Position numbers and translations under genes: made by a program
NCBI GenBank assembly: GCA_045593385.1
Contig: JAZNWP010000048.1
Coordinates: 1-55,211 of the forward strand
Direction: 5' to 3'
Length of the DNA stretch: 55,211 nt
Origin: Acutalibacteraceae bacterium
GTDB lineage: Bacteria; Bacillota; Clostridia; Oscillospirales; Acutalibacteraceae
The notes under the pieces: model-generated
What the model was told of the DNA's origin: nothing
Databases searched by the model: none
What the model saw: only the letters and a program-made list of their open reading frames with translations
Part shown: positions 1 to 55,211 of the stretch, piece by piece
Layout: each line of letters opens with the position of its first letter
How positions within the stretch are numbered: the stretch's first letter is position 1

Positions 1-2
1 AT

Positions 3-734
3 AATATTTATATTGATAACTCTAATAAAAATATTTATGATAAAAATAATAAAAAAATTGTTATAGGGAAATCATTACGACCAAATTTATTAACTAAAAC
101 TCCATCTTTTAATCAATTTTCAAGATAGGATGTTTATAATAAAAAAAATAAAAAATTATTATTAGATAAAAATAATAAGAAAAAAGTTATTGGAAAATAT
201 CTTAAAACATACTATACAGACAGTAATTTATATTGGAATAAAAATGTTTATGAAAATCCAAATAATTTAAATTTTTGGTTTGACTTTTTAGATAATGGAG
301 AGCTTCAAAGATATAGAGCTTAGATTATTGGGAATCGACCAAAAGCAATCAATGACACAAATGTTAAAGCTATTTATTTTAAAGAAACTCCAGATTTAAT
401 TTTTGTTGAAAATGAAGAGGATATTGATAAAAATTTATCTTATAATTATATAAAATATGAAAATATTGAAAAAGATTTTAGTATTAGTGCCCAAGGATAT
501 TCTGCGAAGGATAAAATAGATAATTTGTTATATTAGTATAGTTATGTAATAAATAATGCTGCAATTACTTCAATTCCTATTTATTATTTAGAGCCAAATA
601 CTAGAATATATATTTATGATGAAAAGACTCAAATAAATGGAGATTATATTATAAATAAATTAATAATTCCATTAACCTATAATGGAACTATGTCAATTAC
701 TGCTTCAAGAGTTGTTGAAAATTTTATTGGATAA
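3..734 (+). CDS. 5'-truncated structural protein (putative tail/baseplate component); frame 3 read through 3 in-frame TAG codons, ends TAA 732-734
   Basis: Frame 3 is continuous from the window start apart from TAG at 150-152, 321-323 and 534-536. A Shine-Dalgarno plus ATG of the next gene follows immediately. Asn/Lys-rich beta-rich composition typical of phage tail proteins. No specific family recognised. Confidence 0.4.
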
Positions 735-757
735 TAAGATAAAAAGGAGAGAAATAT

Positions 758-1051
758 ATGATAAAAAATAAAATTAAATAGTTTAAATTTGATTCTTCTA
801 GTTCAGGAGAGAATTTAACTATTACTGGATATAATATAAAAAGAATTGGAATACAAGGACCCCCAAAAACACTTTTTTATTTTAATGGAATGGAAAATAA
901 CTTAATTGAGATAGGATCTACGGGAATATTTGAATTAGATTTATTAGATACTTCAGGAGACATTTCAAAAGTTACTATTGATACAATTCCTACTTTAAAT
1001 GGAAATGAAAAAGTCATTGTGGATATTTTATATTAGCAATATATAGAATAA
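758..1051 (+). CDS. hypothetical structural protein, 97 aa, 2 in-frame TAG
   Basis: SD aaaaggagag 8 nt upstream of ATG 758. In-frame TAG at 779-781 and 1034-1036. True stop TAA 1049-1051 followed by SD aaggagg. Confidence 0.45.
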
Positions 1052-1065
1052 GGAGGAAAATATTT

Positions 1066-2583
1066 ATGGGATTTTATGGAAATGCCGAGTTTGGTGATAT
1101 TCGATTAAGAAAAGTTGAAAATTAGGGAGTTATTATTCCTGAAAATGAAAATATTAAAAAGAATAATATTAATTCGGGTTGGTTAAGTGATTATAAAGAA
1201 ATTAATTCTTTTGCTCCGAATACTTTATTTTCTAATGTATATTCTGATGAAACTTTAAAAGAAAATTTGTATGAGAGGTTTAATAAAGAAGGATTTTACG
1301 GTGGAAAGGATGGTGAGTCTCTTTCAAAAACTTTTTCTTCTGTGGCACCATATTATTAGTTTGAATTAAAAAGAAAAGATTCTACAAATTATTTATTTCC
1401 AACAGAAATTAGTAAAGTCTTTTTTCATAAAACCATAGTATTTATGCCTTTTTATGCTGTCACATTATTACCAGAGAGTGGAGCAGACATATGTTTTGTA
1501 AATAATAATCCAATTCCAGAAAAAGATTGGAAATTTGTTGATAATGATTCAACTAGACTAGGAATTGAATTTGAAAATGAAATTGCTGATGGTTCAATAG
1601 TTCAATTAAAATTTAGAGAAGATACTGGAGGAGCTATAGGATAGTAGTCAAAAACTTGGAGTGGAGGAAGCGTGGGGCAAAATGCCTTAACTGCTTTTGG
1701 TGGTAGTATTGGTAAAAATTCTTTTTCAGGAACTGGGTTTTCTGGTGGATTATTATCTTCAGTTCTTCCTGAATCACCAAATTATATATATAAAAATAAT
1801 TTTAATTCATTATTGAACATATTAGGTACCTCAAAATTATATACTGCTAGTGGAGCAGCAGCTGGAACTAATGCAACCACTATTGGTTCTGGTGGAGCTA
1901 TTGGTTTCAATACTTTTAGTAGTAATGGAGGAGGCTCCTTGGGAAATGGTGCTTTTTCTTCTAGTGGCGGGTCTATTGGAAATAATACTTTTGTTTTATC
2001 AGGTGGAGCAATTGGCAATGAAGCTACTGCTGGAGAAGGATTTTCTGGTGGAAATGAATCTAAAACAGCTTTACTAAAAATAGAAAATTTTGATTTAGAA
2101 CCAGCATTATGGGAGATTGAAAATAATGAAAATGATAATGAAAATGATTATGATTTAATTTCTATTAATTTAAGTTCGTTTTCGGAGTGGAAAAATGTTA
2201 AAAATCTAGACTATTGTCCTTTTAGTAAAATTGTAGTTGATGATTAGTATAATTATTTTATTGAAATTGCTGAAAAAACAGACAATGGAATAAAAATTAT
2301 AATTGAAAAAAATATTTTTACTAAAAGTTTAGAAAAAATTAATTTAGAAGTTAAATTCTATAAAAATTATAATTCTGTAGCAGTAGGATATTAGGCAGAA
2401 GCATTAGTAGATAATGCTGTTCAATTAGGAACAGGGAAAAATGAAAAAGAAGGCAGCCTTCAATTCAAAAATTATACAATAATGACTAATGATGGGGCTT
2501 ATGTAGTATCATCTAATTGGTATGGCACTACACTACCAGAAACTGGGAATTTTGAAGAAGGATAGCTATTCTTTAAAATTTAA
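1066..2583 (+). CDS. tail-fibre-like protein, 505 aa, with Gly-rich SGGAIG-N-F repeats; merges track ORFs 1444..1644 and 1672..2247
   Basis: SD aaggagg then ATG 1066. Frame 1 is open to TAA 2581-2583 except for TAG codons at 1357, 1642, 1645 (two adjacent), 2245, 2395 and 2563. Repeats such as GGSIGKNSFSGTGFSGG and SGGAIGFNTFSSNGGGSLGNGAF resemble fibre/needle beta-structures. Confidence 0.55.
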
Positions 2584-2614
2584 TAAATAAAAAGATAAAA
2601 AGGAGATAAAAATT

Positions 2615-3946
2615 ATGGATTTTGAACAAGGTCAATTAATTCAATAGTTAGATGATGGAACTGAAATTAATTATTATCCAAAAACTTTATTTAGTTCAGT
2701 CTATGAAAATGAAAAAGATAATGCTCTTAATTTAAAAGAGTATTTAAATAATTTTAAAATAGAGGATTCGGGTCTAATAAAAATAGGAAAAGATACTGAG
2801 TTAGCTAGCGTAACTTTAATAAAATCATCATTATATGTAAAGCCAGAAAATAGTGGTATTATTTCATATGGTAGAATAGAATTAGATTATCCGATAGAAA
2901 ATGTTGAGGAATTAAGACTATTAAGAATTCCTATTGTTGGGTTAGACGTTTATGAAATTAAGGATTTTGAATTAATAGACAAAAAAATTATTCAATATAA
3001 TTCAAAAGAATATGAATATACCGCCTTAGACATAATTAATGTTTATCAAATAAAATCAAATTCTAAGGGATTAATATCTATTGGAAATGGGACTAAATCT
3101 TTAGGATAGACTCCTTTATCATTTGGAAATTTTATTAAAAATACAGAAAGTATTGTTATAGGAAATTCTAGTACTGGAAAATTTAATTCAATTGCAATTG
3201 GAAATAATTCTTCTTCAGGATTAAATGGTTTGTCAATAGGAAATAATTCTATAAGTGAAAGTTTTAGTATTTTATCTCTTTCAATACCAGGAATTGCCAT
3301 TGGAGATAAAGCTGAAACGGTTGGTGGAATTTCAATCGGATATGGGGCAACAAGTACTTTTGGAAGTGTTTAGCTATCTACTGGAACTAATGAGCAATCT
3401 CAAACTTTAAAATTTATGGAACATTAGATATCAAATGGAACGTCCGTAACTGCTTCTGGGTCAGATATGGCAGAATATTTTGAATGGGAAGATCAAAATA
3501 TTAATAATCAAGACCGAAGAGGGTATTTTGTTACAATAAAAAATAATAAAATATAGCTTGCTACTTCAAAAAGTGATTATATTTTAGGAGTCGTTTCTTC
3601 TGAAGGTATTGCTTCATTTATCGGAAATACTGCGGTAGAAAATTGGAAAAATAAGTATTTAAAGGATATTTATGGAGATTATATTTTAGATGAAAATGGA
3701 GAAAAAATTATAAATCCAGAATTTAAAGAGACTGAAAAATATATTCCAAGAAAAGATAGAAAAGAATGGGCAGTAGTTTGTCTTATTGGATAGATTGTTA
3801 TTAATGATGATGGAACTTGCGTTCCAGGTGAATACTGTAAAGTTAATGATAATGGAGAAGGAACTGCCGCAAATATTGAAGATAATATAAAATATAAAGT
3901 TTTAGAAAGATTAGATAATAATCATATAAGAATTTTATTTAAATAA
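2615..3946 (+). CDS. tail fibre/appendage-like protein, 443 aa, with IGN-rich repeats
   Basis: SD aaaaggag then ATG 2615. Frame 2 is open to TAA 3944-3946 with about 6 in-frame TAG. Repeats IGNGTKSLG/IGNSSTGKFNSIAIGNNSSSGLNGLSIGNNS, then a globular C-terminus. Confidence 0.5.
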
Positions 3947-3952
3947 ATTGTT

Positions 3953-3998
3953 AAAAGCGAAGAAAAATAATAGTATTTTCTTCGCTTCTTTTTTTTAG
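3953..3998 (+). terminator. rho-independent terminator
   Basis: aaagcgaagaaaa / ttttcttcgcttc stem followed by a T9 run directly after the TAA of the preceding gene. Confidence 0.7.
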
Positions 3999-19842: not shown

Positions 19843-20340
19843 TTAATCTGACCAGTCAAATGTATTATTCTGATCTAACTAATATTTTCCAATACAGAAA
19901 GAGTCTGCTTCATCTTCTGTACATTTTAATTCATAATTTTTTAATACATACTATTGAGCTAATTTTTTTTCTTGAGTTCTACCTTTTCCCGCAATTTTGA
20001 AATGAGCCTTCCATTTAATAGGTTGAATTACATAATATTTTATATTTAACTCAGTTAATAATTCATGAACTACTCCAAATGCTTCAGCAAGAATTTTAAA
20101 AGTTGTTATTCCTAATTCTTTATTACCATTAACATCTTGAAGTTGAATATCTTCAAACGCAACTTCATCAATATTATATTCTTGAATTAATTCAATAATT
20201 TTATTTCTTAACTATTCTAGTCTATCACCCAAATCATTTCCAACACAATCAAAATGACTTGTTTTTACATTTACTCCATCTTTAAATACTGAATATCCAG
20301 TAGTATGAGAAGATTGATCTAATGCTAATAAATTAGACAT
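19843..20340 (-). CDS. RuvC-like Holliday-junction resolvase, 165 aa, 3 in-frame TAG
   Basis: Absent from the ORF track because of TAGs. Frame is open from ATG 20340 to TAA 19843-19845. N-terminus MSNLLALDQSSHTTGYSVF (catalytic D plus TGY as in the RuvC LGIDPGxxxTGYGV motif). C-terminal DEADSFCIG acidic motif. Confidence 0.55.
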
Positions 20341-20875
20341 TAGTTGAACCAAATCCTCCGAAGCGTTCTCCTGTTGTAATGTCATCTTCAGTTACGCCAT
20401 AAGGAACGATAATTCCTTGACCAATTGCTTCTCCTTTTGGAATTTGAATATTAAATGGAGATAAATTATAAAGTTGAAGAAAAATTTCTCCTTCATTGTC
20501 TGGATTATTATAATAATCTGCGTCGATAATTCCTACCCCATTAGCGAGCATAATCCAATACTTTAGCGGAGAAGAACTACGAACACTAAGTTGAAGATAT
20601 GTTCCTGGGTCTAATTTACACTTCATGCCAGTAGAAACTAATGTAGGTTTATATTCAGTTTTCTTTGTAAAATCTCCCATATCTTTAAGAGTAAGATATT
20701 CATCATCTTCTATTTTTAACATTTGACTTGCTTCACCAGCAAGGTTAAAAATTGATGGAATTATATAATCTTCTGCGGCGACGAGGTCATATCCTGCTGA
20801 CTACCTAGTCTTACGGATCGGCATAACCAATTCCGCATCATTAGCATATCTACTTACTTTTTCAAATTTTGCCAT
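20333..20875 (-). CDS. dut: dUTP diphosphatase, 180 aa, 1 in-frame TAG
   Basis: Track ORF 20333..20722 extended upstream through TAG 20797-20799 to ATG 20875. Motifs SAGYDL, RSSSPLKY, GIIDADYYNNPDNEGEIF and GERFGGFGSTNV. Confidence 0.8.
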
Positions 20876-21912: not shown

Positions 21913-22413
21913 TCAAAAATATTTTTTTAAGTCAAGTATTCTTTGATTGCGGGAGCCACGCATAGAAAGTGTAATGTCTCGCTCAGCCTCTATATAAGGC
22001 CCGTCTATTAGAACGTCTGCGCGCCGCAAACTCTCAATGATAAAAGGATTTTTACTATCTAATAGTTCTTCTATTGTATAACCAGTCCAAATATATATTT
22101 TAGTATCTGGAACATAATATTTAACCTACTCTATTACTGTAAAAGTGAGTAGAGCATTTTCTTCGCATAATGGTTCTCCGCCCATAATACATAAATCTCT
22201 TTTAATATTTTGGGCAGTAAGACCATTAATTATTTCATTTAATGTTTCATCGGTAAATTCCAGTCCGCCATCAAAGCTCCAGGTTTCTGGATTGTGGCAA
22301 CCGGGGCATCTGTGCGGACACCCCTAAGTGAAAAAAGACACACACAGACCGGGCGCCGCACTTATATCATTTAAAATTAATCCACTATACTTCAAAGATT
22401 TTACTCCTTTCAT
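21913..22413 (-). CDS. nrdG: anaerobic ribonucleotide reductase activating protein (radical SAM), 166 aa, 2 in-frame TAG
   Basis: Not in the ORF track. Frame is open from ATG 22413 to TGA 21913-21915. Motifs SFFT-TAG-GCPHRCPGCHNPETW (radical-SAM CxxxCxxC) and ...KIYIWTGY. Lies 30 nt downstream of nrdD. Confidence 0.75.
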
Positions 22414-32996: not shown

Positions 32997-33156
32997 AATG
33001 TTATCCTACAAAGTAGGTATACGCCTTTTGGGCGTTTGTTTGTCTAATATTATAACTAAAAGAAGCACATCTTTCATAGCATTTCGCAAAACATAATGCT
33101 GCTTCAGACGGACTAGATAAATTTAAAAAATTTAAATAATTCATTGAACTACTATA

Positions 33157-33936
33157 TTTATATCCAAATACATTGAATTCTTTTTCAATAGTATTTTTAA
33201 GATATTCGCACTAATATTCTAAACTAGCCCCTGATAAAGTTCCATCAGTGTATGGTAAATACCACTAACAAATACCATAATATTGACCACTGTATAAATA
33301 TGGTTCTATATTTAAAGTCTAACCTCCAACTTCTGCCATAATATTACCCATAATTCCAGCGCATACATAGTCATTCCAACCTAACTCTTTCATATACAAC
33401 CAAATATATGATGCCACCGGATATTCAGATTTTCTTTTTTGCCACAATTCTTCCTCATAATCTATTTCTTCTATTTCAGTAGTAGTTTCGATTATAATTG
33501 GTGTAGTTGTTTCTTCTATAGTTGTTGAAATTTCATTAAAAGTAGTCTTAATTGTGGTTTCTATTTCAGTTGTGCTTTCAACTGTTCCACAGACTTCTTC
33601 CTCAATTGTAGTTTCTACAATTTCAGATGTTATTTCTTTAACAACATTTTCAATTATCTCACAAGATTCTTCTTCAATAATGCTTTCTGTTGGTTTGTAG
33701 GCTATATATTTAACCTCATAAAAAATTTCAGTAGATTCTTCTACCATTCCTTCAGTAGTAGTTTCTAATAATGGTATAACTTTTTTTACAACTTTTTTAG
33801 ATGGGATGTTAATTTCTAATATAGTTGAATTAATTGTTTTATCAGTTATGGCTGATATGTTTTTTATAGATAGAGTAAAAAATAAACTGATTGATAAAAT
33901 AAGTGCTATAATAGCAGTTAGAATATTTTTTTTCAT
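33157..33936 (-). CDS. secreted protein with signal peptide, Thr/Glu-rich linker and a phage-tail-lysozyme-like (peptidoglycan hydrolase) C-terminal domain, 259 aa, 3 in-frame TAG
   Basis: N-terminus MKKNILTAIIALILSISLFFTLSIKNISA is signal-peptide-like. Repetitive TTEIETTIKTT linker. C-terminus VCAGIMGNIMAEVGG resembles the AxGIxGNxxxESG motif of tail-lysozyme domains. Track ORF 33319.. extended through TAG to TAA 33157-33159. Confidence 0.4.
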
Positions 33937-33975: not shown

Positions 33976-35766
33976 TTAGAAATAGTATTTTTGTTCTCCA
34001 ATAATTTCATAATCCTCAATAATAATCTGAGGTTCTACAATACCATTCCACTCGTTTCGTCCGCATGTGCCGACGATATTAATGGTTATACAACCGAGTT
34101 CAGAGTAAAACTTTTCATACTCTTCTTGTGACGACTTGAATTTGATTAAACTCGTGCCATTTGGCAAGGTTATCTTCAAGGTAGGACTCTTGTCTTTTGA
34201 CATTAAAGTAACATTAGAACTAGTTAATTTAATATTTTCAATAGCAACAAGAGGTTCTTCTACCCCTTGGCCCCATAAAGATTTTAATTCAGCAATTTTA
34301 ATAATATCTTTTCCATTAAAGTCATTACCAGCATATATGAAATCAACCTTATAACATGGGGTAAAGTCAAAATCTGCCAAAGAATCGTTAGAGTAGTTTA
34401 TAAAGGTATCAATATTTAAATCTTTGATTCCAACACCAAGCGCGTTTGCATGCCCTTCCGCATACATAACTAAGCCGCTTTCTTTTAAAAACTCTCTCAA
34501 GTTGTCAAATTTAGATTTATCGTATCCTCTTCCTGAACCCTCCCAAGAAATGTCTTGTAAAACAAGCCTTTCTCCTTTTGTTCCTAAACATTCTATCTCT
34601 TGGATGGTTTTATTTAATAACAAAACCGGGCGTTGATATTGAGACATTAACTGATTTGCGATTAAACCAGTTAAGTTCTTATCAGTCGCAAAAGTATCTA
34701 ATTTAACAACTAAAATTTTATTCTCCAACAAATTTTGTTCTTCTATTGTGCGTTCAATTATTTCCAAGGCTGCGTCTCTTGCTTTTGTTTGCCTATTTTT
34801 TATGTTCATGCAATTACGACAAGCCTATTCTACTCTCGTCTCTTGCTGACCCTTACATCCTCGTTTAGTTGATGGGATTAGTTCATATCCCCGATAGTCA
34901 AGCATGGACTCGAATAGCATGACCTTTTCTTCTTGCGTTCCCATTCGAATCGTGGCATTTACATAGGGAGCAATATAAAAAGCTATTCCAAAAGGAGTGA
35001 TACCATTTTTTAATTGATATTCCTGTCTTTCGACCATTCCTCTGAAATACGGATTGCGGATACTTTTCAAACCTTTGTTTATTAAATGCTTTGTTTCATA
35101 GTCTCGCAAATCCATCATGTCGGCCACCATACCCAGTGCGACCAAATCTAAATATTGATCTGCATAATCAACATCCAAAAGAGTATCTATGTAAGAACAG
35201 AATTTATATACCATTCCTACACCAGAAAGTGATTTTGTTGGATAATCACACATTTGATTATTGATAACACAGGCATGTTCAGATTCTTTATCTGTTTCAT
35301 GGTGGTCTATTACTAACACATCTACTCCTCTTTCCGCAAGTTCTTTATGAACTTCATAATCATTTGAGCTTGAGTCGGGAGCAATTACTAGCTTAACATT
35401 GGTTGGAATGGTGTTAAGTAGTATTCCGTGTTCCTTCCCTGTATGGATACGATATAAAATGTTATTCTGCACAAAACCAGGGAAGAGACAATTTAAGTAG
35501 TTTATTAACGTTGCGGCAGATGTGTATCCATCGCAGTCGCTATCAATCTACACTAGAACTTTGTCGTTTTGTGAGATATGTTTGATAAGCATTTTTGCGC
35601 CCTTTTTAATATTTTTAATTAAAAGAGGATCTACAATATCCTTATTAGTTGTATTTAAATAGTGTTCTACATTTTCCGGGGCAATGCCTCGGTTGGCAAG
35701 CACCTGTTCGACCGCTGTCAACACTTTATTAGGCGGGAACTGTGGTGCAATAAGTTGATATTCCAT
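33976..35766 (-). CDS. recJ: DHH-family phosphoesterase, RecJ-like ssDNA exonuclease, 596 aa, 2 in-frame TAG; merges track ORFs 35548..35766, 34825..35472 and 33976..34809
   Basis: All three ORFs share one frame separated by TAG at 35548-50 and 34825-27. DHH motifs KVLV-TAG-IDSDCDGYTSAA and VLVIDHHETD. SD aaggagg before ATG 35766. Confidence 0.7.
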
Positions 35767-35819: not shown

Positions 35820-36182
35820 TTATTCAATATATTTACTTCCTTTCGACCAATCAGGATGCCAATATCGAATATTATTTGGATAATAAGTTGCATAAGTTTG
35901 AGGACGAATTATATTATTATAAACTTCTAAGGTAATTCTAGTATCTACTATAGAAAAATCTGCTCTGTGACCTCTACTACAATCACCAGCTCTTCTAACT
36001 TTCCAAGAATCTATTATACCATCATCATTTTCGAAAAGTGCATTAGAACCATCCCTGCAGATTCTAACGTTCTAAGCTTCAATACCTTTCTTTTGATATT
36101 CCTAAACTATCTATTCAAAAAACTTATTTCCGTCTTCAATTTTTTCAGTCCAAATTATATATCTTCTATACCTTTTTTTCAT
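35820..36182 (-). CDS. hypothetical protein, 120 aa, 3 in-frame TAG
   Basis: Not in the track. ATG 36182 overlaps the primase TGA (ATGA). Frame is open through 3 TAG to TAA 35820-35822. Confidence 0.4.
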
Positions 36183-37279
36183 AAAATTATCCTTTCTTTA
36201 AATAATTGCAAAAATTTTTCTGGACCTTCATCAATTGGACTTGATTTATATCCAGTTATCATATTCTTATCAAAAATAAAAGAAATAGTTGCTGAATTTT
36301 TATATTTATTTCTTAATTTAATAAGATTCGTTTTTAATCTTTTAAACTCTTCATCACCAATTGCTTCAAACTGTCTATCAAACGCAATTACAATTTCTTC
36401 TACGCCTAAATCCAAAAGCATTTGTATTTGATACGCTGATATACTAAAACCGCAACAAGCAACTGAAATATCGTTATCCAAGCCAAAATATGATTTATAT
36501 AATAAAGTTGATTTTTCTGATTCAAAAACAATAACTTTTTTCATAATTTTAATATTATCTTTACTAAAATTAAGATTATATAAATTCATACCAAGAGGAT
36601 GATTATATAGTTCTTTATTAATTTTTAAAGGTCTATATTTACCAAAAAGCTTTCCCTCTTCTTCACACATTGTGCGGCCGCGCAGTCCTACGAACCTACC
36701 AGTCGAGTCAAAATGCGGAATTGTAATTTGGTCTCCTCCTGGATAAAACCCGATTCGTGCCTGATTCATCGCCTCTTGTGAAATTCCTTCATCTAACCAA
36801 GGTCTTATTTTTACACCATAGTTAAATCTATTTAAAATTTCATCATCATATTCTTTCAATATAATATTGCTTTCTTTTAAGGTAATTTCTTGAATTCTTT
36901 CATAATTAGTGAGATATTTCCAATCTTCCAGTTTCTCATCTGGATTTTCTGCGTATTCACCAGATAATCCGAACCGCTGAGCAACCCAGCGCACGGCATC
37001 ATTTAAATCGAATTCTTTTCCCCATTGAATCTTTGCTACTTTAATAACCAACTGAAATGGATCAAAATATTCATCGCAACCAGTGAAGCATTTAAACAGT
37101 CCTGTATTTTCATAATAATATAATTTCTTACTTCCTTCTCCTGGAGGATTGTGGCAGATAGTCGCGGAGATAAGCCCAAATGCTGCCGCATTGGGCTCAC
37201 CACCAAATTCATATAATAAATCAAAAATATTTTCAGTTGTCAAAGATTCTCTAATTTTTAATTTATCAAATGTTATCAT
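36179..37279 (-). CDS. dnaG: DnaG-type DNA primase (zinc-binding plus TOPRIM), 366 aa, no TAG
   Basis: CHC2 zinc finger CHNPPGEGSKKLYYYENTGLFKCFTGC. TOPRIM VIVFESEKS / DxD region. Confidence 0.8.
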   Translation of the reverse strand: MITFDKLKIRESLTTENIFDLLYEFGGEPNAAAFGLISATICHNPPGEGSKKLYYYENTGLFKCFTGCDEYFDPFQLVIKVAKIQWGKEFDLNDAVRWVAQRFGLSGEYAENPDEKLEDWKYLTNYERIQEITLKESNIILKEYDDEILNRFNYGVKIRPWLDEGISQEAMNQARIGFYPGGDQITIPHFDSTGRFVGLRGRTMCEEEGKLFGKYRPLKINKELYNHPLGMNLYNLNFSKDNIKIMKKVIVFESEKSTLLYKSYFGLDNDISVACCGFSISAYQIQMLLDLGVEEIVIAFDRQFEAIGDEEFKRLKTNLIKLRNKYKNSATISFIFDKNMITGYKSSPIDEGPEKFLQLFKERIIL

Positions 37280-37283
37280 TACA

Positions 37284-37520
37284 TTATAGACCTACTATTA
37301 CTTTAGTACAATATCCTTTTAAACCAAGAAATTGATTTACATAATCACACAATGCTTGTTGTGGATTTTTTCCTTTATTTTGATTAACAATTAAATCTGC
37401 TAAAGTTTGAGTCATTTTATACTCAAACAATCCGCTATGAAATTCAGGTGGTTCAACAACAGATTCTTTATTACTACCATAATCTCTTACCTTGTTCTTT
37501 TTTTCATACATTTTAGTCAT
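37284..37520 (-). CDS. small hypothetical protein, about 78 aa
   Basis: Track ORF 37284..37652 overlaps the helicase 3' end. Internal ATG 37520 with SD aaggag is the likelier start. Confidence 0.3.
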   Translation of the reverse strand: MTKMYEKKNKVRDYGSNKESVVEPPEFHSGLFEYKMTQTLADLIVNQNKGKNPQQALCDYVNQFLGLKGYCTKVIVGL

Positions 37521-37596
37521 ATTATTTATCTCCTTCTTATCTACAATTCCAAAATCGGAATCGTGTAATAAATTTAACTTACTTCTAAGCCCTCGC

Positions 37597-39144
37597 TCAA
37601 TCTTCACATTCGAAGGCTGATTCTTCGTCAATTCTAATTCTAACATCATCAATACTTACCATTTCATAATCATATGTCGTGCAGAACATCGGTTGAATTC
37701 TACAACAACCTAAATCTGCTTTACACCATAAGATTACTCCTTTATACCGTCCTCGTCTATTTTTATAAATAGACATTTTAATTGTTGGTCTTTCAAAAAT
37801 ATTAGACGATAATATATTTTCAAGAGCTACTAAGTCATCGTCTTTTACCGAGAGTAAAATCGCCCCATAGTCTATTTTATCGGCAATCGCCTTCGCACCA
37901 CGAAGAAGATTTTGATCAGGAACATCTGCATCTACATATGAGCCATTCAACTGCGTTGCTGACATAATAAATACTCCGTGTTGATTACATATGTCTTTTA
38001 ATCGAGTAGATAACATAAACAAGATATTATCTTCTCTTAATTTAATACCTCCAGAACGACGAGTAATTTCTTCAAGAATCTTCAAGCTTGTATGTATATA
38101 GTCATGAAAAACATACTTTACATCATGTTCTCGAATATTTTTCTTTATCTTATCTTCAACATCTTTTAATGAAAAGTCTGGTAATTCTTCAACATAGATT
38201 GGACTATCTTTTAATAAATTAGCCGCATAAATAACTCTTTCTTCTTCATCACCCTCGTATGAACCATTCAGAATCTTTTCTTCATTAACATTTGATAAAA
38301 ATGCTAACATCATAGTTTGAATTTCTTCAAGTTCCTGTTCTGTTGTAATAAATAAAACAGGCTCTGCGGCGCCACTTCCAATCCAACCAAAAGTATCATC
38401 ATATAGTTTATTACAACCAATATAACAGCAGTCGGCAATCATCGAGCGCGTCTTTCCGATACCAGTTGCGGCTGAGCGCAAATAAAACTTTTTTAATCTT
38501 GCTCCACGAGTTACTGTATTAATAAGCGGTCCGTATAAAGGAACTCCAACTTCTGGATGATCTTTAAATTTTTGAATTAAATCAAGAATTCCTTCTCCAG
38601 CTTGTTGAGCCTCACTAAATGTATCATCAACATATTGAAGTCTAATATTTTCGATTTTTGAATCTACCTTATCAGCAATGTCTTCCAAAGTTGAGTTATC
38701 TAATTGCTCTTCTTGATATTGTTTTTTCTTTGTGTCTAATATATTATCAACATCATAAATGTCTGATATATCAATTCCGCAATTATCATATGCTCTTAAT
38801 AAAGAAAATTTCTTTAATCTACCATAATAATAATCAAAAGCAGAACTAACACAGCTATCAGACACTTTCATTAGCCACTCTTCGCCTTTTCCTTCTTTAT
38901 AAATAGCTTCACTTTTAGGCTTTGTTGATAAGAAGTCTGAAATACTCTCTAAAGTAATTTTCTTTGCTCCTAATTCATATATTTTATAAATTGCTCCAAA
39001 AACTGTTTTATGAAACATATCTGGAAAATCTTCATCAACAATACTATATTTATCAGTAAAATCCAGAAGTTGGGGAGTATTATATACACATCCAATTACC
39101 TGCATAATACTTGTGGTATCTACATATTTAGATGCCATCCGCAT
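37597..39144 (-). CDS. dnaB: DnaB-family replicative DNA helicase, 515 aa, no TAG
   Basis: Walker A SAATGIGKT. DnaB N-terminal domain. RecA-like core with H3/H4 motifs. Confidence 0.85.
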   Translation of the reverse strand: MRMASKYVDTTSIMQVIGCVYNTPQLLDFTDKYSIVDEDFPDMFHKTVFGAIYKIYELGAKKITLESISDFLSTKPKSEAIYKEGKGEEWLMKVSDSCVSSAFDYYYGRLKKFSLLRAYDNCGIDISDIYDVDNILDTKKKQYQEEQLDNSTLEDIADKVDSKIENIRLQYVDDTFSEAQQAGEGILDLIQKFKDHPEVGVPLYGPLINTVTRGARLKKFYLRSAATGIGKTRSMIADCCYIGCNKLYDDTFGWIGSGAAEPVLFITTEQELEEIQTMMLAFLSNVNEEKILNGSYEGDEEERVIYAANLLKDSPIYVEELPDFSLKDVEDKIKKNIREHDVKYVFHDYIHTSLKILEEITRRSGGIKLREDNILFMLSTRLKDICNQHGVFIMSATQLNGSYVDADVPDQNLLRGAKAIADKIDYGAILLSVKDDDLVALENILSSNIFERPTIKMSIYKNRRGRYKGVILWCKADLGCCRIQPMFCTTYDYEMVSIDDVRIRIDEESAFECED

Positions 39145-42275: not shown

Positions 42276-42304
42276 ATTATACCAAAATTAATTAAAAAAA
42301 TCAA
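42276..42304 (-). promoter_or_regulatory. promoter TTGATT-N17-TGGTATAAT; copy 2 of the conserved element
   Basis: Reverse complement reads ttgatt tttttaattaattttgg tataat. The -35 overlaps the folA stop codon. Confidence 0.5.
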
Positions 42305-42795
42305 GTTATTCTGTCATATTGCCAGAATTGAAACGAAAAATCTTTATAGTTTTCCAACTCTCCAAGAGCCATTGATTTCCATTGAGGATCTTTATCCAGG
42401 TTTGGAAAATATGTATCAACATTTTCATGTTTTTTATAAATTTTTGTTATATAAACTCGATTACAATAAGGAAGAAGTTCTTTGTAAATAATACCTCCAC
42501 CTATAATAAAAATTTCTTTTTTAGAAGTTTCTAACCAAGGAAGTAATTCTTCTAATGTCATATAAATAACTTGACTCGTTCCAGAAGGGGGATATTCTTT
42601 CCGTGTAATAATTACATTATTCCTATTTGAGAGAGGTTTTTTTGGTAAAGAATCCCAAGTTTTACTTCCCATTATTACTACATTATTAGTAGTGAGTTTT
42701 TTAAAATTTTTTAAGTCTGCGGGGATTGATTCTAACAAATTTCCATTGTATCCTATTCCCCAGTCTTCATTTACTGCTACTATTGCATTAATCAT
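42301..42795 (-). CDS. folA: dihydrofolate reductase, 164 aa, no TAG
   Basis: MINAIVAVNEDWGIGYNGNLLESIPADLKNFKKLT...VIMGSKTW is the canonical DHFR N-terminus. Ends TGA. Confidence 0.8.
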   Translation of the reverse strand: MINAIVAVNEDWGIGYNGNLLESIPADLKNFKKLTTNNVVIMGSKTWDSLPKKPLSNRNNVIITRKEYPPSGTSQVIYMTLEELLPWLETSKKEIFIIGGGIIYKELLPYCNRVYITKIYKKHENVDTYFPNLDKDPQWKSMALGELENYKDFSFQFWQYDRIT

Positions 42796-43022
42796 ATAAA
42801 TTTTCCCTCATTCCAATTTTTGGCTGCTTTAATTTTAGCATCAAAAAGAGAAATCTCTTGAGCAAACCAGAATCCTCCAGTATTCATAGTTTTCTTATGA
42901 CAATTTGGACATTCAAGCCATAAATGAGTATAATAGGGATTTGGTCTAATAAATTCTGGATAAAATCCACAATCACAGGCCTAAATACTTACTACTTCAT
43001 TTGAAATAATATAATCTTTCAT
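42792..43022 (-). CDS. small Cys-rich (Zn-binding) protein, 76 aa, 1 in-frame TAG
   Basis: ATG 43022 overlaps the thyA TGA. CDCG...CPNCH. TGA 42792-94 overlaps the folA ATG. Confidence 0.35.
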
Positions 43023-43888
43023 ATTCCTAACTCCAATTTTAATTGAGGTTTAATAGGATTATAATTTACCATAGAAAAATCATCAATAGTAAAATCATAA
43101 AAATTATTTTTATCTTCATTAAGAACTAGCATACTTTCTGGATACACTCCATTATAATAATCTTTTGCGTCAAGTTCTTTAAATCTTTTTAGCATTTCAT
43201 TTGCTTGTTCTATATGACGATCATAAATTTGTTCATTGGCAACAAAATGCGAAAATACTCCAGGCAAATAATTTGTATGACGAGCAATCATCATTAATAA
43301 AGCAGCATACTATGCTTCATTAATGCCGCCTGGACCAGAAGCAGTTAGCATATCACCACTGCGCTGAACAAGAACCATATCAAGATATTCTTTTCCGTTT
43401 TCATTGCGGACGTTCCATATTGTGAGGAATGCGCAAGGGGCTAATCCGGCCGTTTCAGCAAGGTCCGTTTCTTGCCAAAGGGATACTATTTTACGACGAC
43501 CATATGGATCAGTTTCAATATCTTTAATAAGTTTGTTAATTAAATCATAGCGACTAACCGTTGCCCCATATCTTTGTCCAATTGTGCCGTCTCCAATATC
43601 CCAATCGCCCCACCAATTAACTCCCATTTCTTCCATTTTAGTTATTTCATTGGTTGGCTTTTGATAAATGGTAAAGATTTCTTTTATTCCAGTTTTCCAA
43701 GCAATTGGACGATATTGACAAATTGGAAATTCTCCACGAGATAAGTCATAAGTTCTAAAAGTATGATTTATTGATTTAGTATGTGCGGGAGTGCCATCCG
43801 CATATTTTGGACGGGGATTCCGGTCCCAATAGCCATCCGCAAGTATTCTATCAATAATTTCTTTCATATAAATATCTGCTTTATTCAT
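43019..43888 (-). CDS. thyA: thymidylate synthase (B. subtilis ThyA-type), 289 aa, 1 in-frame TAG; merges track ORFs 43310..43888 and 43019..43294
   Basis: DGTPAHT, IAWKTGIKEIFTIYQ, DGTIGQRYG, catalytic LAPCAF, QRSGDM, C-terminal FYDFTIDDFSMVNY. TAG 43310-12 aligns with Gln of FNVFQYN in B. subtilis ThyA. Confidence 0.8.
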
Positions 43889-44414: not shown

Positions 44415-45425
44415 TTATTTTATACTATATCCAAATTCTTTTGCTTTAAAATAATCTTGCCAGTAATCTTCTCTTGAATCTAAAAGACTTCTATCGCATT
44501 CTTCAACAACTTCAAATGTAAAGTTTTCAGGTCCAATAGCAATCATAGCTGGATATAACTTATTTTTTGTTGGTTGTTCTGCACCAACTCCACGCTTAAT
44601 ATGTTGTTTCCAACGATCTGCAATATTTGCGGCTTGACCAACATAGCATTTTCCAGAAGAGATTTCAGTTATTTTATATATTCCGGTGTGAGTGCCGGAA
44701 CCGACCACTCGACCAATCATATCAGTAGTAGGTTTTTCATAATAACATTTCCAAATGATTTTATTAAGAGGTTCTTTGTTTCTTAATAGATGTTCTATTG
44801 AGCGCAAAGCCTCGATTTCATTAATATCAACTTCGTTTAAACAAATCCGATAAAAATCTTGTTGAGTGCGCAGTTCTTCCGCCCTTTTGGCGGCTTCAAC
44901 CGCAGCTGCATGAATATTTCTCATTTCTGAAATATCAGTCTATAATTTTTGGAATTCTTTTAAATTATCCTATACTATTTCATCGTATTCAATCTAAAAC
45001 TATTCAATATTTTCATCTTTCGCAGCCATTGCTTTAATAATCTCTTCATTTAATTTACTCTATGCGATTTCTAATTGAAGATTATAATAAGAATCTGCGG
45101 CGGTTTTAGACTATTCTTCAAGCATTCTCATATTATCGTTTAAAATGTTAATATTAGATAAAATAGTATTTTTTTCAGCAGTTAATTCTCTTGTTTCATT
45201 TTCTATTATTTCTTTTTGATCTAATAAAATTAATTTATCATGAATTAACTATTGGTTATCTTTTTCTAATTGCTGATACTCTCTTTTGGCTTTCTAATTT
45301 TCTTCTTTTATCCATTCATCCTATTGCTCAGCCGCAACTAACCGAGGTTTTAGAATAAAAAATATAGATAAGCCAGTTATTACTGCTGTAATAACAATTG
45401 CTATTATTAATACAACAAATTGCAT
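44415..45425 (-). CDS. membrane-anchored coiled-coil protein with C-terminal GIY-YIG nuclease domain, 336 aa, 9 in-frame TAG in the coiled-coil half
   Basis: ATG 45425. N-terminal TM FVVLIIAIVITAVITGLSIFFIL. Coiled coil reads smoothly with Gln at the TAGs (EQQDEWIKEENQKAKREYQQLEKDNQQL...). C-terminus GIYKITEISSGKCYVGQAANIADRWKQHIK...EDYWQDYFKAKEFGYSIK matches the I-TevI-like GIY-YIG domain. The track shows only the C-terminal 169 aa. Confidence 0.6.
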
Positions 45426-51262: not shown

Positions 51263-51656
51263 TAAGACTAAACTACCTTTCTGTTTTATTTAAATAAGTG
51301 TCTTTTTCTAAAAAAGGTGCTTCTTCTTTTGGTTTAAAAATAGTTATATTTTTAACAACATTACTATTAACTAATAAAATATCATTATTTGGAAAAACTT
51401 TTTTTAATTCTTGATATAAAATTTTATATTCACCCATATCTATATCATCAGAAATTTGACACATAATAACATCATTGGGGTTTGTTTTAACAATCTAAAC
51501 AGGAATTCCATCTGACCAAACATCAACAGTCCCGTTTAGAGAAGAATCTGGATATATCGGTGAAGACGAATATTTGCTAAAATCAATTCCATCAAGCGTT
51601 GAAGATAAATATTTACTAAAATCAATTCCATCAATTGAATTATTTATATTACACAT
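51246..51656 (-). CDS. hypothetical protein, 136 aa, with a 13-aa tandem repeat (IDGIDFSKYLSS x2) and 2 in-frame TAG
   Basis: ATG 51656 lies 2 nt after the gyrB stop. Track ORF 51273..51464 is its C-terminal part. Reads through TAG 51273-75 to TGA 51246-48. Confidence 0.35.
51562..51639. repeat. 39-bp tandem direct repeat x2 (in-frame, coding)
   Basis: gaagacgaatatttgctaaaatcaattccatcaagcgtt / gaagataaatatttactaaaatcaattccatcaattgaa. Confidence 0.6.
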
Positions 51657-53586
51657 CTACATTTGCCCTCCAAGCATTATTTTCAATGAACTTTTTTCTT
51701 GGGTCAACACTTTCACCCATAAGACTCATAAATGTTTTTGCTACTTCGGTAGCATCTTCCATTGTAATTTGTTTTAAAGTTCTTGTTTCTTTTGACATAA
51801 CAGTTTCTGCCATTTCTTCAGGATCCATTTCACCAAGACCCTTCATTCGACCAAGCTCAAAATTCTTTGAAGTAGACTTTCTAAATGCTTCAAGTGCGGC
51901 ATCATCTTTTAAATATTGAATCTTAGTTCCCATAGTAGCTTTATAAAGAGGAGGCACTGCCGCATATACATAACCCTTTTCCAGTAATTCCGGACAGAAC
52001 TTCCAGATAAATGTGAGGAAGAGGACGCGTATGTGGCTGCCATCAACGTCAGCGTCTGCGGTGATAATAAACTTACCATAACGAAGTTTTGTTTCATCAA
52101 CGATAATTTTATTGTCTTTCACTTCTAAGCCAAAAGCATCAACCATACCACTTATTTCTTTATTTTGAAGAGCTTTATGTAAATCACATTTCAAAACATT
52201 AAGTGGCTTACCACGAAGCTGAAACACTGCTTGTGTTAATCTGTCTCTCGCTTCTTTTGTTGATCCAGCAGCAGATTTACCCTCTACAATAAATACTTCA
52301 CAGTTATATCTATCTTTCGAGCTAGCATCTGCAAGAACATCTGGCATAATTACTCTGCGCTTAGCATCGGCTTTGCGCACAGTTTCCTTAGCCTTTTTTG
52401 CCTTTTCCCTTGCCGCTCGAGCCAAAAGTGCTTTATCTACAATAGCCTTAGCATCTTTTGGATTTGCGTCAAGCCAAACTTTTATTTCCTTAGATACTAA
52501 TCTTTGGACTGCCGTTCTTGCTTCGCTACTGGAAAGAACATCTTTTGTCTGACCAGAGAAAACTGGGTCTGGCATAATAAATGAAAGAACAAGAACAAGT
52601 CCTTCTTTTAATTCTTCGCCAGTGATATTAGCATCTTTTTCTTTTAATAATTTATTATCTCTTGCGTAATCGTTAATTGTGCTTGTAAGCGCAGTTCTGA
52701 AACCGGTTAAGTGAGTTCCCGCGCTATTTGGAATTGAATTGGTATATAATTTATAAGTATCAGTATAATTATCATTATACTGCATAGCAAGTTTTACTCC
52801 AATTCTATCTTCCATATTTTCAGTATAAAATACTGATGTTAATTTTGTTTTGTCTTTATTTAAATCATTAATATAATCTTTAATACCATTTTGAGAAGTA
52901 ATTATTTCTTTTGATTTATCTTCAAATTGAAGTGAAAAAATCAATCCTGGAGACAAATAAGCTAATTCTTGAATTTGCTTTTTTAAAGCATTATAATCAA
53001 GAGAGATACCTTCTTTAAAAATCGATATATCTGGCTTAAAAGATATACAAGTCCCAGAAACTGTTTTATCAATTACACCATTTAAGCCTAAAAGCGGTTC
53101 TTCTTTGTAGCTAATTAATTCACCTTTTTTAAATTCGGCAGTTGCTTTTTTGCCATTTCGAGCAGAAACAACTTTAAATATTTCTGATAAAGCATTAGTC
53201 GCTTTTGCACCTACACCATTCATACCACCAGACGTATTATATCCTGCTTTTCCATCACTATCGAATTTAGCACCGGTATGTAATTTGGTATAAACATTAA
53301 CCAAAGTTTCACTTCCATCTTCAGCTTTGCCGAAAGGAACGCCACGGCCATTATCTCTAATAGTTATAATATCATCTTTAACATAAATTTCGCACTCTGT
53401 GCAATGTCCATTCAGATATTCATCAACAGCATTTGATATAATTTCGAGGGTGATGTGCCTTACACCTTCTGGTCCAGTTGAACCGATATACATACCCGCA
53501 CGAAGTCTAATTGCTTCAATACCCTCTAAGGTCTTAATTTGATTTACGCCATACTCAGCATTATTTACGTTGTTTGGTATTTCCAT
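51649..53586 (-). CDS. gyrB: type IIA topoisomerase subunit B (GyrB/ParE/T4 gp39+60-like), 645 aa, no TAG
   Basis: GHKL ATPase (EIISNAVDE, GRGVPFG). TOPRIM EVFIVEGKSAAGS. PLxGK. C-terminal tail. Confidence 0.85.
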   Translation of the reverse strand: MEIPNNVNNAEYGVNQIKTLEGIEAIRLRAGMYIGSTGPEGVRHITLEIISNAVDEYLNGHCTECEIYVKDDIITIRDNGRGVPFGKAEDGSETLVNVYTKLHTGAKFDSDGKAGYNTSGGMNGVGAKATNALSEIFKVVSARNGKKATAEFKKGELISYKEEPLLGLNGVIDKTVSGTCISFKPDISIFKEGISLDYNALKKQIQELAYLSPGLIFSLQFEDKSKEIITSQNGIKDYINDLNKDKTKLTSVFYTENMEDRIGVKLAMQYNDNYTDTYKLYTNSIPNSAGTHLTGFRTALTSTINDYARDNKLLKEKDANITGEELKEGLVLVLSFIMPDPVFSGQTKDVLSSSEARTAVQRLVSKEIKVWLDANPKDAKAIVDKALLARAAREKAKKAKETVRKADAKRRVIMPDVLADASSKDRYNCEVFIVEGKSAAGSTKEARDRLTQAVFQLRGKPLNVLKCDLHKALQNKEISGMVDAFGLEVKDNKIIVDETKLRYGKFIITADADVDGSHIRVLFLTFIWKFCPELLEKGYVYAAVPPLYKATMGTKIQYLKDDAALEAFRKSTSKNFELGRMKGLGEMDPEEMAETVMSKETRTLKQITMEDATEVAKTFMSLMGESVDPRKKFIENNAWRANVDV

Positions 53587-54317
53587 TTAAAACCTCCACA
53601 TTTATTTCTTTTTCCATTACAAACTTTTGAAATGCCACTGGCATCGCAATCATTATCTGCGGCAGCTAATGCTACACTACCATAAATCTGTAATTCTTCA
53701 TTATTATCATTCATTTTTATTACTTGTTTACTTGATTTTGTAATTCTATTATTTTGAACTTGATTAACTTTTATTTCTGGAATAATAATTTCATTTTCTT
53801 CATCTAAAAATCTAAAAATACGATTGCCAGTTGTCAATCTTGTTCCATTACAAACATTACTGATTTTAAATCTATCTAATCCAGTTGCTTCACCTGCTTC
53901 TGCGAGAGAGTTCCAAATAACAAGAATGTTATTGGCAGAGTCAATTTCACAAACTCGTTTACCGTATTTTTCTCTTTTGGTATCACTCATTTTCTTTGCT
54001 ATTACAGGATCAAACATAGGACTATCAGTTTTATCAGTTTGATTATATCCATTTGGCTTAACACAATCTTCTTTAATAATCCAATTGTGCTCTGCTTCAA
54101 TCATTGCTTTCCAAGTTGGTAAAGTATCAACTATTTCAAAAGTGAAGTTAGCAATACCAAACTCTCTGAAAGCGACCATTAAAGGATAATTATAATGATG
54201 GTCTTTTTCGTTGATGGAAGCTTCTTTATGCTACCTCCATCTGCGTTCAGTTTCAATTGATGAACCAATATAAACCATTCCATTTTTTTGATTAGTTATT
54301 TTATAAATTTGATACAT
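53565..54317 (-). CDS. free-standing GIY-YIG homing endonuclease (Seg/I-TevI-like with NUMOD-like linker), 250 aa, 1 in-frame TAG
   Basis: ATG 54317 with SD aaggtaaggtg. YQIYKITNQKNGMVYIGSSIETERRWR-TAG-HKEA (GIY...YIG...R..H). EHNWIIKEDCVKPNGYN. Repeated ISNVCNGTRLTTGNRIFRF / ISKVCNGKRNKCGGFKWKY modules. The 3' end overlaps the gyrB start by 22 nt. Confidence 0.7.
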
Positions 54318-54413
54318 AGAATTCACCTTACCTTTCTATTATATCATAAAAATTGATAAAAATTAATTTTCCATTCTGGGCCAATGCCAGGACAGAGTTG
54401 ATGAAATTAACCT

Positions 54414-54656
54414 TTATTCTGTCAATAGATGTGCGGCAGCAGGCAATTCTGTTACAATATGCTCTAATTCTCCATTAAATTCATATTCTTTTTTACATTT
54501 TTTACATAACCAATGACTTAAAGTGAGATATCCATCAATTAAATTCATTGATTGCTTACAATATGGACATTTTAAAGGAGTAATACCGGGTCTTAACCGA
54601 ATTGCTTCAATGCCTTCGAGTGTTTTTATATCTTTAACACCATAATCTATTGACAT
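54414..54656 (-). CDS. 80-aa ORF whose first ~24 aa duplicate the GyrB N-terminus (IKTLEGIEAIRLRPG), then a Zn-ribbon (CPYC...CKKC)
   Basis: The shared 15-aa core (IKTLEGIEAIRLR) is identical to GyrB 51649..53586 at protein level; differs at synonymous sites (att/ata, aag/aaa, tta/ctc, aga/cgg ...). Own promoter upstream. Confidence 0.5.
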   Translation of the reverse strand: MSIDYGVKDIKTLEGIEAIRLRPGITPLKCPYCKQSMNLIDGYLTLSHWLCKKCKKEYEFNGELEHIVTELPAAAHLLTE

Positions 54657-54693
54657 AGCTTAAAATCCTTTCTATTTTTTATTTTACAAATAT

Positions 54694-54722
54694 ATTATAC
54701 CATATTTTTTTTAAAAAATCAA
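54694..54722 (-). promoter_or_regulatory. promoter TTGATT-N17-TGGTATAAT; copy 3 of the conserved element
   Basis: Reverse complement reads ttgatt ttttaaaaaaaatatgg tataat, upstream of ORF 54414..54656. Confidence 0.5.
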
Positions 54723-54731
54723 TTAAGAAAA

Positions 54732-55211
54732 TCAGAATAATCCCTCAATTTGATTTTTATCATTAACAAAAATAAAGTTTGCGGCAGGAACTTTCGGCAA
54801 ACCAGGCATTGTCATAATTTTTCCACAAATAATTACTATAAATCCAGCACCTGCAGACAATCTTACTTCATTAACTTTAATGGAGAAATCTTCGGGTGCT
54901 CCTAATAAAGTTGCGTCATCACTAAAGCTATATTGTGTTTTTGCTATGCAAATTGGTAATTTATCATAACCAAGAGAAGTGATTTTTTCTATCATACGTT
55001 CAGCTTCTTCTGAATAAATTACATCATTAGCCCCATAAATATTATGCGTAAGATTATAAATTTTTTGCTTTATATCTTGATTGATGTCATATGGATGAGT
55101 TAAAACGCCAGTATCTTGTTGAATTGCGTCAAGCACTTCCCAAGCCAGGGCTTCCGCACCTTTCCCGCCTCGCGCAAAAGAATCACATACAACGCAAGGA
55201 ACTTTTATATC
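54732..55211 (-). CDS. fhs: formate--tetrahydrofolate ligase, 3' portion (gene continues beyond the window end)
   Basis: ...ARGGKGAEALAWEVLDAIQQDTGVLTHPYD...LPICIAKTQYSFSDD...EVRLSAGAGFIV...TMPGLPKVPAA...IEGLF is the characteristic FTHFS C-terminus. Frame is open to base 55211. Slightly higher GC than the phage average. Confidence 0.65.
   Translation of the reverse strand, partial: DIKVPCVVCDSFARGGKGAEALAWEVLDAIQQDTGVLTHPYDINQDIKQKIYNLTHNIYGANDVIYSEEAERMIEKITSLGYDKLPICIAKTQYSFSDDATLLGAPEDFSIKVNEVRLSAGAGFIVIICGKIMTMPGLPKVPAANFIFVNDKNQIEGLF

Follow-up and report, generated by a model that had tools for sequence, protein, structure and literature searches.

Phages that reassign the stop codon TAG to glutamine (Gln) have been on record since 2014. 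Later work surveyed the reassignment at scale (Cook et al., PMC11210395), verified it by metaproteomics in two crAss-like phages (Peters et al., PMC9523058), and linked phage recoding to tRNA-processing ribozymes (PMC10879173). In the recoded phages described by Borges et al. (bioRxiv 10.1101/2021.08.26.457843; later Nature Microbiology), early genes can still be read in the standard code, recoding falls on late, lysis, and selfish genes, and suppressor tRNAs are found. Here, we analyze the codon usage of contig JAZNWP010000048.1, a stretch of 55,211 nt with a GC content of 30.9% (hereafter, the window), which is probably about one third of an uncultured tailed phage of ~160–200 kb. A preceding sequence-only reading had proposed that TAG is a sense codon throughout this genome, most likely for Gln. 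We find that TAG is indeed a sense codon in the window and behaves as Gln, that TAA and TGA are retained as stops, and that TAG is avoided in the replication genes, both here and in related phages.

When only TAA and TGA are taken as stops, long frames tile the window nearly without gaps and fall into two strand blocks (+ strand, 1–19047; − strand, 19097–55211), with an AGGAGG-like Shine-Dalgarno (SD) site ahead of the first ATG in nearly every frame. The resulting set comprises 56 genes, of which 40 end in TAA and 16 in TGA. None contains an in-frame TAA or TGA, and 106 in-frame TAGs are spread over 37 of them. This gene set bears out the description given by the sequence-only reading, namely long frames on both strands that are interrupted by TAG, end at TAA or TGA, and are preceded by SD and ATG. 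We compared coding density under four stop-codon schemes using a greedy open reading frame (ORF) caller. Under the standard code (code 11), the density is 76.6%, with 74 genes of median length 134 residues and a strand coherence of 0.86 and 0.96 in the left and right block, respectively. With TAG as a sense codon (code 15), the density rises to 94.0% and the median length of the 56 genes to 190 residues, and this is the only one of the four schemes with 100% strand coherence (1.00 in both blocks). The corresponding values are 79.3%, 81 genes, 122 residues, and 0.83/0.92 with TGA as a sense codon (code 4), and 88.8%, 84 genes, 142 residues, and 0.61/0.79 with TAA as a sense codon. Gene calling under tables 11, 15, and 4 therefore favors code 15, as the sequence-only reading would have it, and the shift in density resembles that published for code-15 phages (from 66.8% to 90.0%; PMC11210395). 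TAA as a sense codon was rejected from this comparison, and TGA as a sense codon (codes 4 and 25) was ruled out by the low density together with the use of TGA exclusively as a terminator. The genes for dihydrofolate reductase (DHFR, folA), primase, and NrdG all end in TGA, as had been stated in excluding code 4, and in DHFR this is a true stop, because the PF00186 match reaches residue 162 of 164.

The conventional alternative would be that the standard code applies and that the genes are either split or decayed, as in a dead prophage or pseudogenes, or carry TAGs as sequencing errors. Nothing beyond the in-frame TAGs themselves speaks for it. The frames are interrupted by TAG only, and the longest TAG-to-TAG segment free of TAA and TGA spans 383 codons. 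Since TAA or TGA occurs about once per 8–20 codons in the two non-coding frames of the same genes, such segments are far beyond chance. The TAGs are also uniformly distributed along the genes (Kolmogorov–Smirnov p=0.59 for all 106), which argues against TAG as a terminator near gene ends. Moreover, the TAG sites are common to, or occupied by CAA or CAG in, many independent assemblies, most of the related phages show the same pattern, and in both NrdD and NrdG, TAGs precede the essential catalytic motifs. We consider the chance that the standard code applies to be minimal.

Homology runs through the TAGs in a number of enzymes. The Pfam scans were carried out with TAG translated as X. The products of g01–g07 lie outside these scans: those of g01–g04, g06, and g07 were compared with PHROGs only, and that of g05 with neither Pfam nor PHROGs. 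The genes that had been singled out as full-length only upon TAG readthrough, that is, nrdD, nrdG, thyA, dam, dut, and the recJ-like and ruvC-like genes, were all recovered and do behave in this way. For the anaerobic ribonucleotide reductase NrdD, an ATP-cone domain (residues 1–86) is followed by a single PF13597 stretch covering residues 112–737 (E=5e-149; profile positions 2–562 of 562). Under code 11, the same protein would fall into fragments of 56, 344, 218, 69, 36, and 13 residues, leaving the glycyl-radical motif severed from the barrel, while its activase NrdG would be reduced to a stub of 29 residues that lacks the radical-SAM cysteine motif. An AAA_24 domain likewise gives a single uninterrupted Pfam match that crosses a TAG. 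Dut, guanylate kinase, and Dam are recognized by Pfam as well, but with the best domain stretch on one side of the single TAG in each.

To assign an amino acid to TAG, we used 22 IMG/VR loci around the gene for DNA polymerase III (Pol III) alpha (46–82% protein identity), to which we added IMG/VR loci around GyrB, a phosphoesterase, and a homologue of the tail/adhesin gene g05, giving ~150 loci in total. Codons were compared in BLASTP alignments. In 436 pairings of window TAGs with relatives, the partner is CAA or CAG in 221 cases, TAG in 42, a Glu codon in 30, and a Lys codon in 23. We then weighted each site once and compared the TAG profile with the substitution profile that each of the 20 amino acids shows in these alignments. 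For a set of 36 sites, Gln has the highest likelihood, 47 nats ahead of Lys, and when 68 of the 106 sites are included, it leads Glu by ~60 nats and Lys by ~66 nats. It is also the commonest residue at these 68 sites and the majority residue at 31 of them. The rate of alignment to Gln is 40–50% at TAG sites, compared to 52–61% at canonical CAA/CAG sites, at most 4% at Glu, Lys, Tyr, Trp, Leu, and Ser sites, and a Gln background of 3%. For g05, homologues with 25–39% identity were found in 17 IMG/VR loci, and 13 of its TAG sites could be aligned. Gln content leads to the same assignment: in the tail and fiber genes it increases from 1.68% to 2.67% once TAG is counted as Gln, as against 2.47% in TAG-free replication genes. 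The idea that the window TAGs arose specifically from CAG was rejected, as relatives show CAG at 44% of TAG sites and at 47% of CAA sites.

The individual sites are equally informative. In NrdG, one TAG lies in the segment FFT-TAG-GCPHRCPGC, directly ahead of the radical-SAM cysteine motif, and is aligned to Gln in 19 relatives and to TAG in one. In thymidylate synthase, the TAG aligns with the Gln of the FNVFQYN motif in the best Protein Data Bank match, B. subtilis ThyA (1BKO/1B02). Both sites are those on which the sequence-only reading had based the assignment to Gln, and it is upheld by them as well as by the likelihoods and the Gln content. The NrdD TAGs are mostly opposite Gln in relatives, and of the two TAGs in the RecJ-like gene, one is opposite Gln in nine relatives and TAG in eight, and the other is opposite Gln in 17.

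A sense codon need not encode Gln, and TAG could instead specify Glu (through an un-amidated Gln-type suppressor in a host that uses the GluRS/GatCAB route), Lys, Tyr, or pyrrolysine (Pyl). Glu and Lys do rank second and third at the TAG sites (weighted counts of 8.5 and 4.9 out of 68), and ARAGORN labels any tRNA with a CUA anticodon as Pyl. However, Glu and Lys are the usual substitutes for Gln at ordinary Gln codons too, the likelihood differences are large with CAA and CAG as the commonest partner codons, and the conserved TAG sites in NrdG, ThyA, RecJ, and NrdD are occupied by Gln in nearly all relatives. No domain of the Pyl pathway was found among the Pfam-scanned window proteins. Pyl decoding in particular was rejected, as TAG occurs in genes of all classes and aligns with Gln. 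Taken together, another amino acid at TAG is highly unlikely.

The use of TAG is uneven, and here the initial claim requires modification, since 19 of the 56 genes, including the replication core, are free of TAG and the codon is therefore not used throughout. TAG accounts for 18% of the Gln codons overall, outnumbering CAG (106 versus 94), and for 37% in the structural genes g01–g07, and its use is heterogeneous among genes (p ~5e-5). In contrast, nine genes, namely those for Pol III alpha, primase, DnaB, LigA, GyrA, GyrB, DHFR, and RNase H and the fragment of the formate-tetrahydrofolate ligase (FTHFS) gene, have no TAG among 117 Gln codons (P ~6e-11). The name primase is carried over from the sequence-only reading, and no Pfam family matched this gene, g34. 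In the relatives, orthologues of the nine genes contain 27 TAGs in 4,895 Gln codons (0.55%), compared to 537 in 5,301 (10.1%) for other genes. Because the scarcity of TAG recurs across relatives and is not a quirk of one genome, it points to selection that keeps the replication genes readable in the standard code. Within one strand, the replication genes that the phage needs in a naive host have been kept TAG-free across ~100 related genomes, next to TAG-rich nuclease, lysozyme, and tail genes, which makes for a clean and quantified case in favor of the view that stop-codon reassignment serves phages as a timer.

Such avoidance also bears on the host. If the host itself read TAG as a sense codon, the phage would simply match it and no switch would occur during infection, and there is precedent in the phages of code-4 and code-25 bacteria, which match the code of their hosts (Borges et al., bioRxiv 10.1101/2021.08.26.457843). 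However, if TAG were ordinary in the host, its avoidance in replication genes, in the window and in the clade alike, would be unexpected. Furthermore, the metagenome-assembled genomes (MAGs) co-binned with related contigs are ordinary Clostridia, and we know of no bacterial lineage in which TAG encodes Gln. We therefore see only a very slim chance that the host shares the code.

We consider it very probable that the window derives from a phage of ~160–200 kb that uses code 15 with TAG as Gln, in which selection keeps the replication genes free of TAG while a TAG-decoding agent gates the others. Immediately after infection, the standard-code ribosomes of the host would produce the TAG-free replication and topology proteins along with DHFR and FTHFS. 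The TAG-bearing genes (structural genes, lysozyme, nucleases, homing endonucleases, NrdD/NrdG, ThyA, Dut, and RecJ) would yield full-length products only once TAG is decoded, presumably by a phage tRNA(CUA) whose gene lies beyond the window and which host enzymes charge with Gln, possibly with help from a weakened action of release factor 1 (RF1). TAG would thereby act as a gene-by-gene translational lock that delays the recoded products. In this model, the suppressor tRNA, the time at which the code is switched, and the identity of the host are inferred.

Several observations weigh against the model. At about half of the aligned TAG sites, the partner is a residue other than Gln, which is expected for a poorly conserved residue but leaves some ambiguity. 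TAG-free and TAG-containing genes are interleaved on one strand and do not form the separate blocks that would back an early/late reading. As for the decoding agent, neither ARAGORN nor Rfam identified a tRNA in the window, where the only Rfam match is a sub-threshold one to mir-14 that amounts to noise, and no release factor, aminoacyl-tRNA synthetase, or amidotransferase was found among the Pfam-scanned window proteins. In the ~150 related loci of ~20 kb around Pol III, GyrB, the phosphoesterase, and the g05 homologue, ARAGORN found no tRNA(CUA), and among the loci retrieved with the FTHFS fragment, it found one only in a distant relative, L029. The tRNA arrays of two relatives, contig 3300029305_001878 with ~11 tRNAs and the L182 contig with 15, include none with a CUA anticodon. 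Finally, a GGQ-motif scan of IMG/VR for class-I release factors with a hand-made query alignment returned 31 viral contigs, none of them in the clade.

With no tRNA(CUA) found in the window or in the related loci, arrays included, and no release factor found in the clade, TAG might be decoded as Gln without a canonical phage suppressor tRNA, be it by a host factor, a non-canonical RNA, or a modified host tRNA(Gln) or RF1. In addition, suppressor tRNAs have been detected in just 40% of TAG-recoded genomes (Borges et al., bioRxiv 10.1101/2021.08.26.457843). However, the related loci cover only about one third of each genome, the tRNA arrays differ in position and content within the clade, and absence from such a partial sample is weak evidence. 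Furthermore, L029, whose proteins are 53–58% identical to those of clade members, carries a largely cloverleaf-shaped tRNA with the anticodon CUA beside an array. Decoding of this kind is unlikely. Distinctly improbable, in our judgment, is a more elaborate version, in which a non-canonical agent (an RNA, or a modified host tRNA(Gln) or RF1) acts with a lock that operates gene by gene instead of at the level of modules, is heaviest on g46, and in this phage has spread into nucleotide-metabolism genes as the GC content drifted to 31%. Based on the published analogues and on the tRNA(CUA) of L029, a phage-encoded suppressor tRNA is most likely the decoding agent.

Further searches around the tRNA arrays gave the following picture. 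A search with a conserved tRNA-Pro pattern recovered four arrays and no new CUA tRNA, and Rfam added one tRNA-like match in the arrays of relatives, with the anticodon CAT. Locus L181 belongs to the same contig as L029, and its 2.5 kb stop short of the CUA tRNA on that contig. Neither a pattern search of JGI metagenomes nor blastn against the fetched loci gave a match to the L029 tRNA(CUA). In L029, the FTHFS gene (8729–10474) lies within the tRNA array and has three in-frame TAGs, and the tRNA(CUA) is positioned ~200 nt upstream of the ATG of a gene for a DUF2828/DUF7788 protein (16262–18058; Pfam E=1e-36 and 2e-29), whose homologue in L172 lacks a tRNA in front of it. Two unrelated IMG/VR phages of 230–276 kb, L143 (10001–11601) and L147 (10001–10884), have a class-I release-factor gene followed after ~0.6–1.3 kb by a tRNA(CUA), an arrangement that looks like a compact code-switch module. 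In the array of a clade member, L179, a structured element (1222–1302, + strand; minimum free energy z=-2.7) that Rfam matches, below threshold, to the type-P1 twister ribozyme (41.6 bits versus a gathering threshold of 67.2) is located directly upstream of a 92-nt tRNA, and recalls the ribozymes found beside phage tRNAs (PMC10879173).

The phage group to which the window belongs is populous and uncultured, and its longer contigs measure ~130–200 kb. An exact search with 44 nt from the right end of the window gave no match in IMG/VR or in JGI metagenomes, and exact matches to the g55 protein occurred only on ENA contigs of 0.9–3 kb. Identical fragments are present in the ENA samples ERZ28593832, ERZ27316494, and ERZ28593937. 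Megablast of 24 kb against INPHARED revealed no deposited phage with similarity at the DNA level, and among cultured phages, Pol III alpha comes closest to YorL of SPbeta-like Bacillus phages (40% identity over 99% of the length). Most related loci gain 5–17 percentage points in coding density under code 15. Those without a gain in the regions seen are L012/L014, L006, L064, L065, L069, L084, and L106, and two of them, L012 and L014 (IMG/VR 3300024272_001728 and 3300028454_000371), have a Pol III alpha that is 73% identical to that of the window and no TAG in the aligned orthologues, and may be standard-code members of the same clade. In the orthologous region, the GC content is 31% in the window and ~39% in the nearest relatives (L001–L018), and the share of TAG among Gln codons is 12.5% versus ~5%, which fits a spread of TAG accompanied by AT pressure. 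NrdD, NrdG, Dut, and ThyA carry TAGs here and are almost TAG-free in relatives.

The strong SD sites, the likeness of Pol III alpha to that of SPbeta-like Bacillus phages, the FTHFS homologues (the nearest named ones are from Clostridia, at ~50% identity), and the binning of related ~150-kb contigs with Oscillospiraceae, Eubacterium, and Lachnospiraceae MAGs provide circumstantial support for a host that is most likely a low-GC, SD-using member of the Clostridia from the animal or human gut. Other FTHFS homologues, located on long contigs, proved to be bacterial. The FTHFS gene itself is an auxiliary gene of one-carbon and nucleotide metabolism, alongside those for DHFR, ThyA, and NrdDG.

The positions of the genes are listed in Table 1. 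Among the structural genes, the tandem TAG noted earlier in a fiber gene is present as described, whereas the number of TAGs in g05, previously given as 25, was found to be 19. The LigA, GyrA, RNase H, and GyrB genes are interspersed with small TAG-containing genes (g50 and g52). The g46 protein has a transmembrane helix at its N terminus, a GIY-YIG nuclease domain at its C terminus, and a long Q/E/K-rich coiled coil, and belongs to the most heavily TAG-recoded family in the clade (268 TAG versus 648 CAA/CAG codons in 47 relatives, or 29% TAG). It may have a late toxic function that is restrained by the code switch. In the relative L038 (8828–10022), the counterpart of g54 follows a duplicate of the 5' part of gyrB (corresponding window region, 53565–54656, − strand), which suggests that an endonuclease gene has inserted, or an intron-like element is present, where gyrB begins.

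Table 1. Genes of the window with their in-frame TAG codons and supporting features.
Gene	Product or description	Coordinates	Strand	In-frame TAGs	Remarks
g01	3' part of tail/fiber-like structural gene	3..734	+	3	Extends past left window end; bounded by TAA only; weak PHROG match phrog_32343
g03	Glycine-rich fiber-like gene	1066..2583	+	7	Includes tandem TAG TAG at 1642-1647; SD GGAGG ahead of ATG 1066
g04	Tail fiber/spike gene, C-terminal pre-neck-appendage-like domain	2615..3946	+	6	phrog_4775, E=9e-21, residues 271-429 in one stretch across TAGs
g05	Tail/adhesin gene, 1966 residues	4097..9997	+	19	
g06	Large structural gene	10000-12162	+	3	
g07	Large structural gene	12431-14806	+	7	
g17	RuvC-like resolvase	19843..20385	-	3	PF07066/PF02075, residues 16-168 in one stretch
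g18	dUTPase (Dut)	20333..20875	-	1	PF00692; TAG opposite Q in 15/20 relatives
g22	NrdG activase	21913..22413	-	2	TGA end; PF13353, E=2e-35, residues 21-159 across both TAGs
g23	NrdD anaerobic ribonucleotide reductase	22444..24669	-	5	Glycyl-radical motif RVTGY after fourth TAG
g25	DNA polymerase III alpha (DnaE/YorL type), 1285 residues	25316..29173	-	0	Orthologues in 22 relatives: 7 TAG vs 909 CAA/CAG
g26	Dam-type N6-adenine methyltransferase	29301..30035	-	1	PF02086
g31	Secreted phage lysozyme (Phage_lysozyme2)	33001..33936	-	3	TAGs within catalytic domain; PF18013, residues 175-309 in one stretch
g32	RecJ-like DHH exonuclease	33976..35766	-	2	PF01368 and PF17768
g34	Primase	36179-37279	-	0	TGA end; relatives: 0 TAG in 227 Gln codons
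g35	Small gene between g34 and g36	within 36179..39144	-	0	
g36	DnaB helicase	37597-39144	-	0	Pfam and PHROG matches; relatives: 6 TAG in 285 Gln codons
g41	DHFR (folA)	42301..42795	-	0	TGA end; PF00186, residues 1-162 of 164
g43	Thymidylate synthase (B. subtilis ThyA type)	43019..43888	-	1	PF00303, residues 9-285
g46	Transmembrane, coiled-coil, and GIY-YIG nuclease-domain protein	44415..45425	-	9	PF01541, residues 248-328
	LigA	46123-48114	-	0	Relatives: 0 TAG in 475 Gln codons
	GyrA	48192-50567	-	0	Relatives: 2 TAG in 1,583 Gln codons
	RNase H	50786-51262	-	0	
	GyrB	51649-53586	-	0	Relatives: 2 TAG in 1,130 Gln codons
g54	GIY-YIG/NUMOD homing-endonuclease-like gene	53565..54317	-	1	PF01541 and PF22083; directly upstream of gyrB
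g56	3' end of FTHFS gene	54732..55211	-	0	TGA end; PF01268, profile 400-556 of 556; extends past right window end

In practical terms, the default code 11 makes a quarter of the sequence appear non-coding and enzymes appear broken, and code 15 is needed for annotation, host prediction, and counts of auxiliary metabolic genes in this phage and its relatives. Earlier publications already cover the reassignment, the amino acid, and the split between early and late genes, and the finding opens no new question. The main contribution of the analysis is to quantify how replication genes across the clade avoid TAG amid recoded neighbors.

Among known systems, the SPbeta-like Bacillus phages provide the closest cultured Pol III alpha and are also large Firmicutes phages, but the two polymerases share limited identity, and no similarity to the window is seen at the DNA level. 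They are described as users of the standard code. Code-4 phages and mollicutes, where TGA encodes Trp, have likewise reassigned a stop codon in a low-GC genome, whereas TGA is never in frame in the window. The crAss-like phages (Crassvirales) and Lak megaphages share code 15, the retention of TAA and TGA as stops, and late-gene recoding, but they are unrelated lineages with Bacteroidota hosts, and the window is set apart by its strong SD sites, DnaE-type polymerase, and gyrase. The window most resembles the large TAG-recoded Firmicutes phages of Borges et al. Assignment to their Jade, Sapphire, or Agate clade depends on a tree of the large terminase, a gene that the window does not contain, and the likeness therefore rests on other traits. 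Unlike in those clades, no suppressor tRNA or RF2 is seen in the window, and recoding here reaches NrdD/NrdG, ThyA, Dut, and RecJ, in which the nearest relatives have hardly any TAG. On the side of agreement, the relatives have genomes of ~150–200 kb with TAG opposite Gln and a predicted Firmicute host that uses the standard code, recoding is heavy in structural, lysis, and endonuclease genes, with replication genes showing variable recoding or none, and close relatives vary in the extent of recoding, with a few related loci compatible with the standard code.

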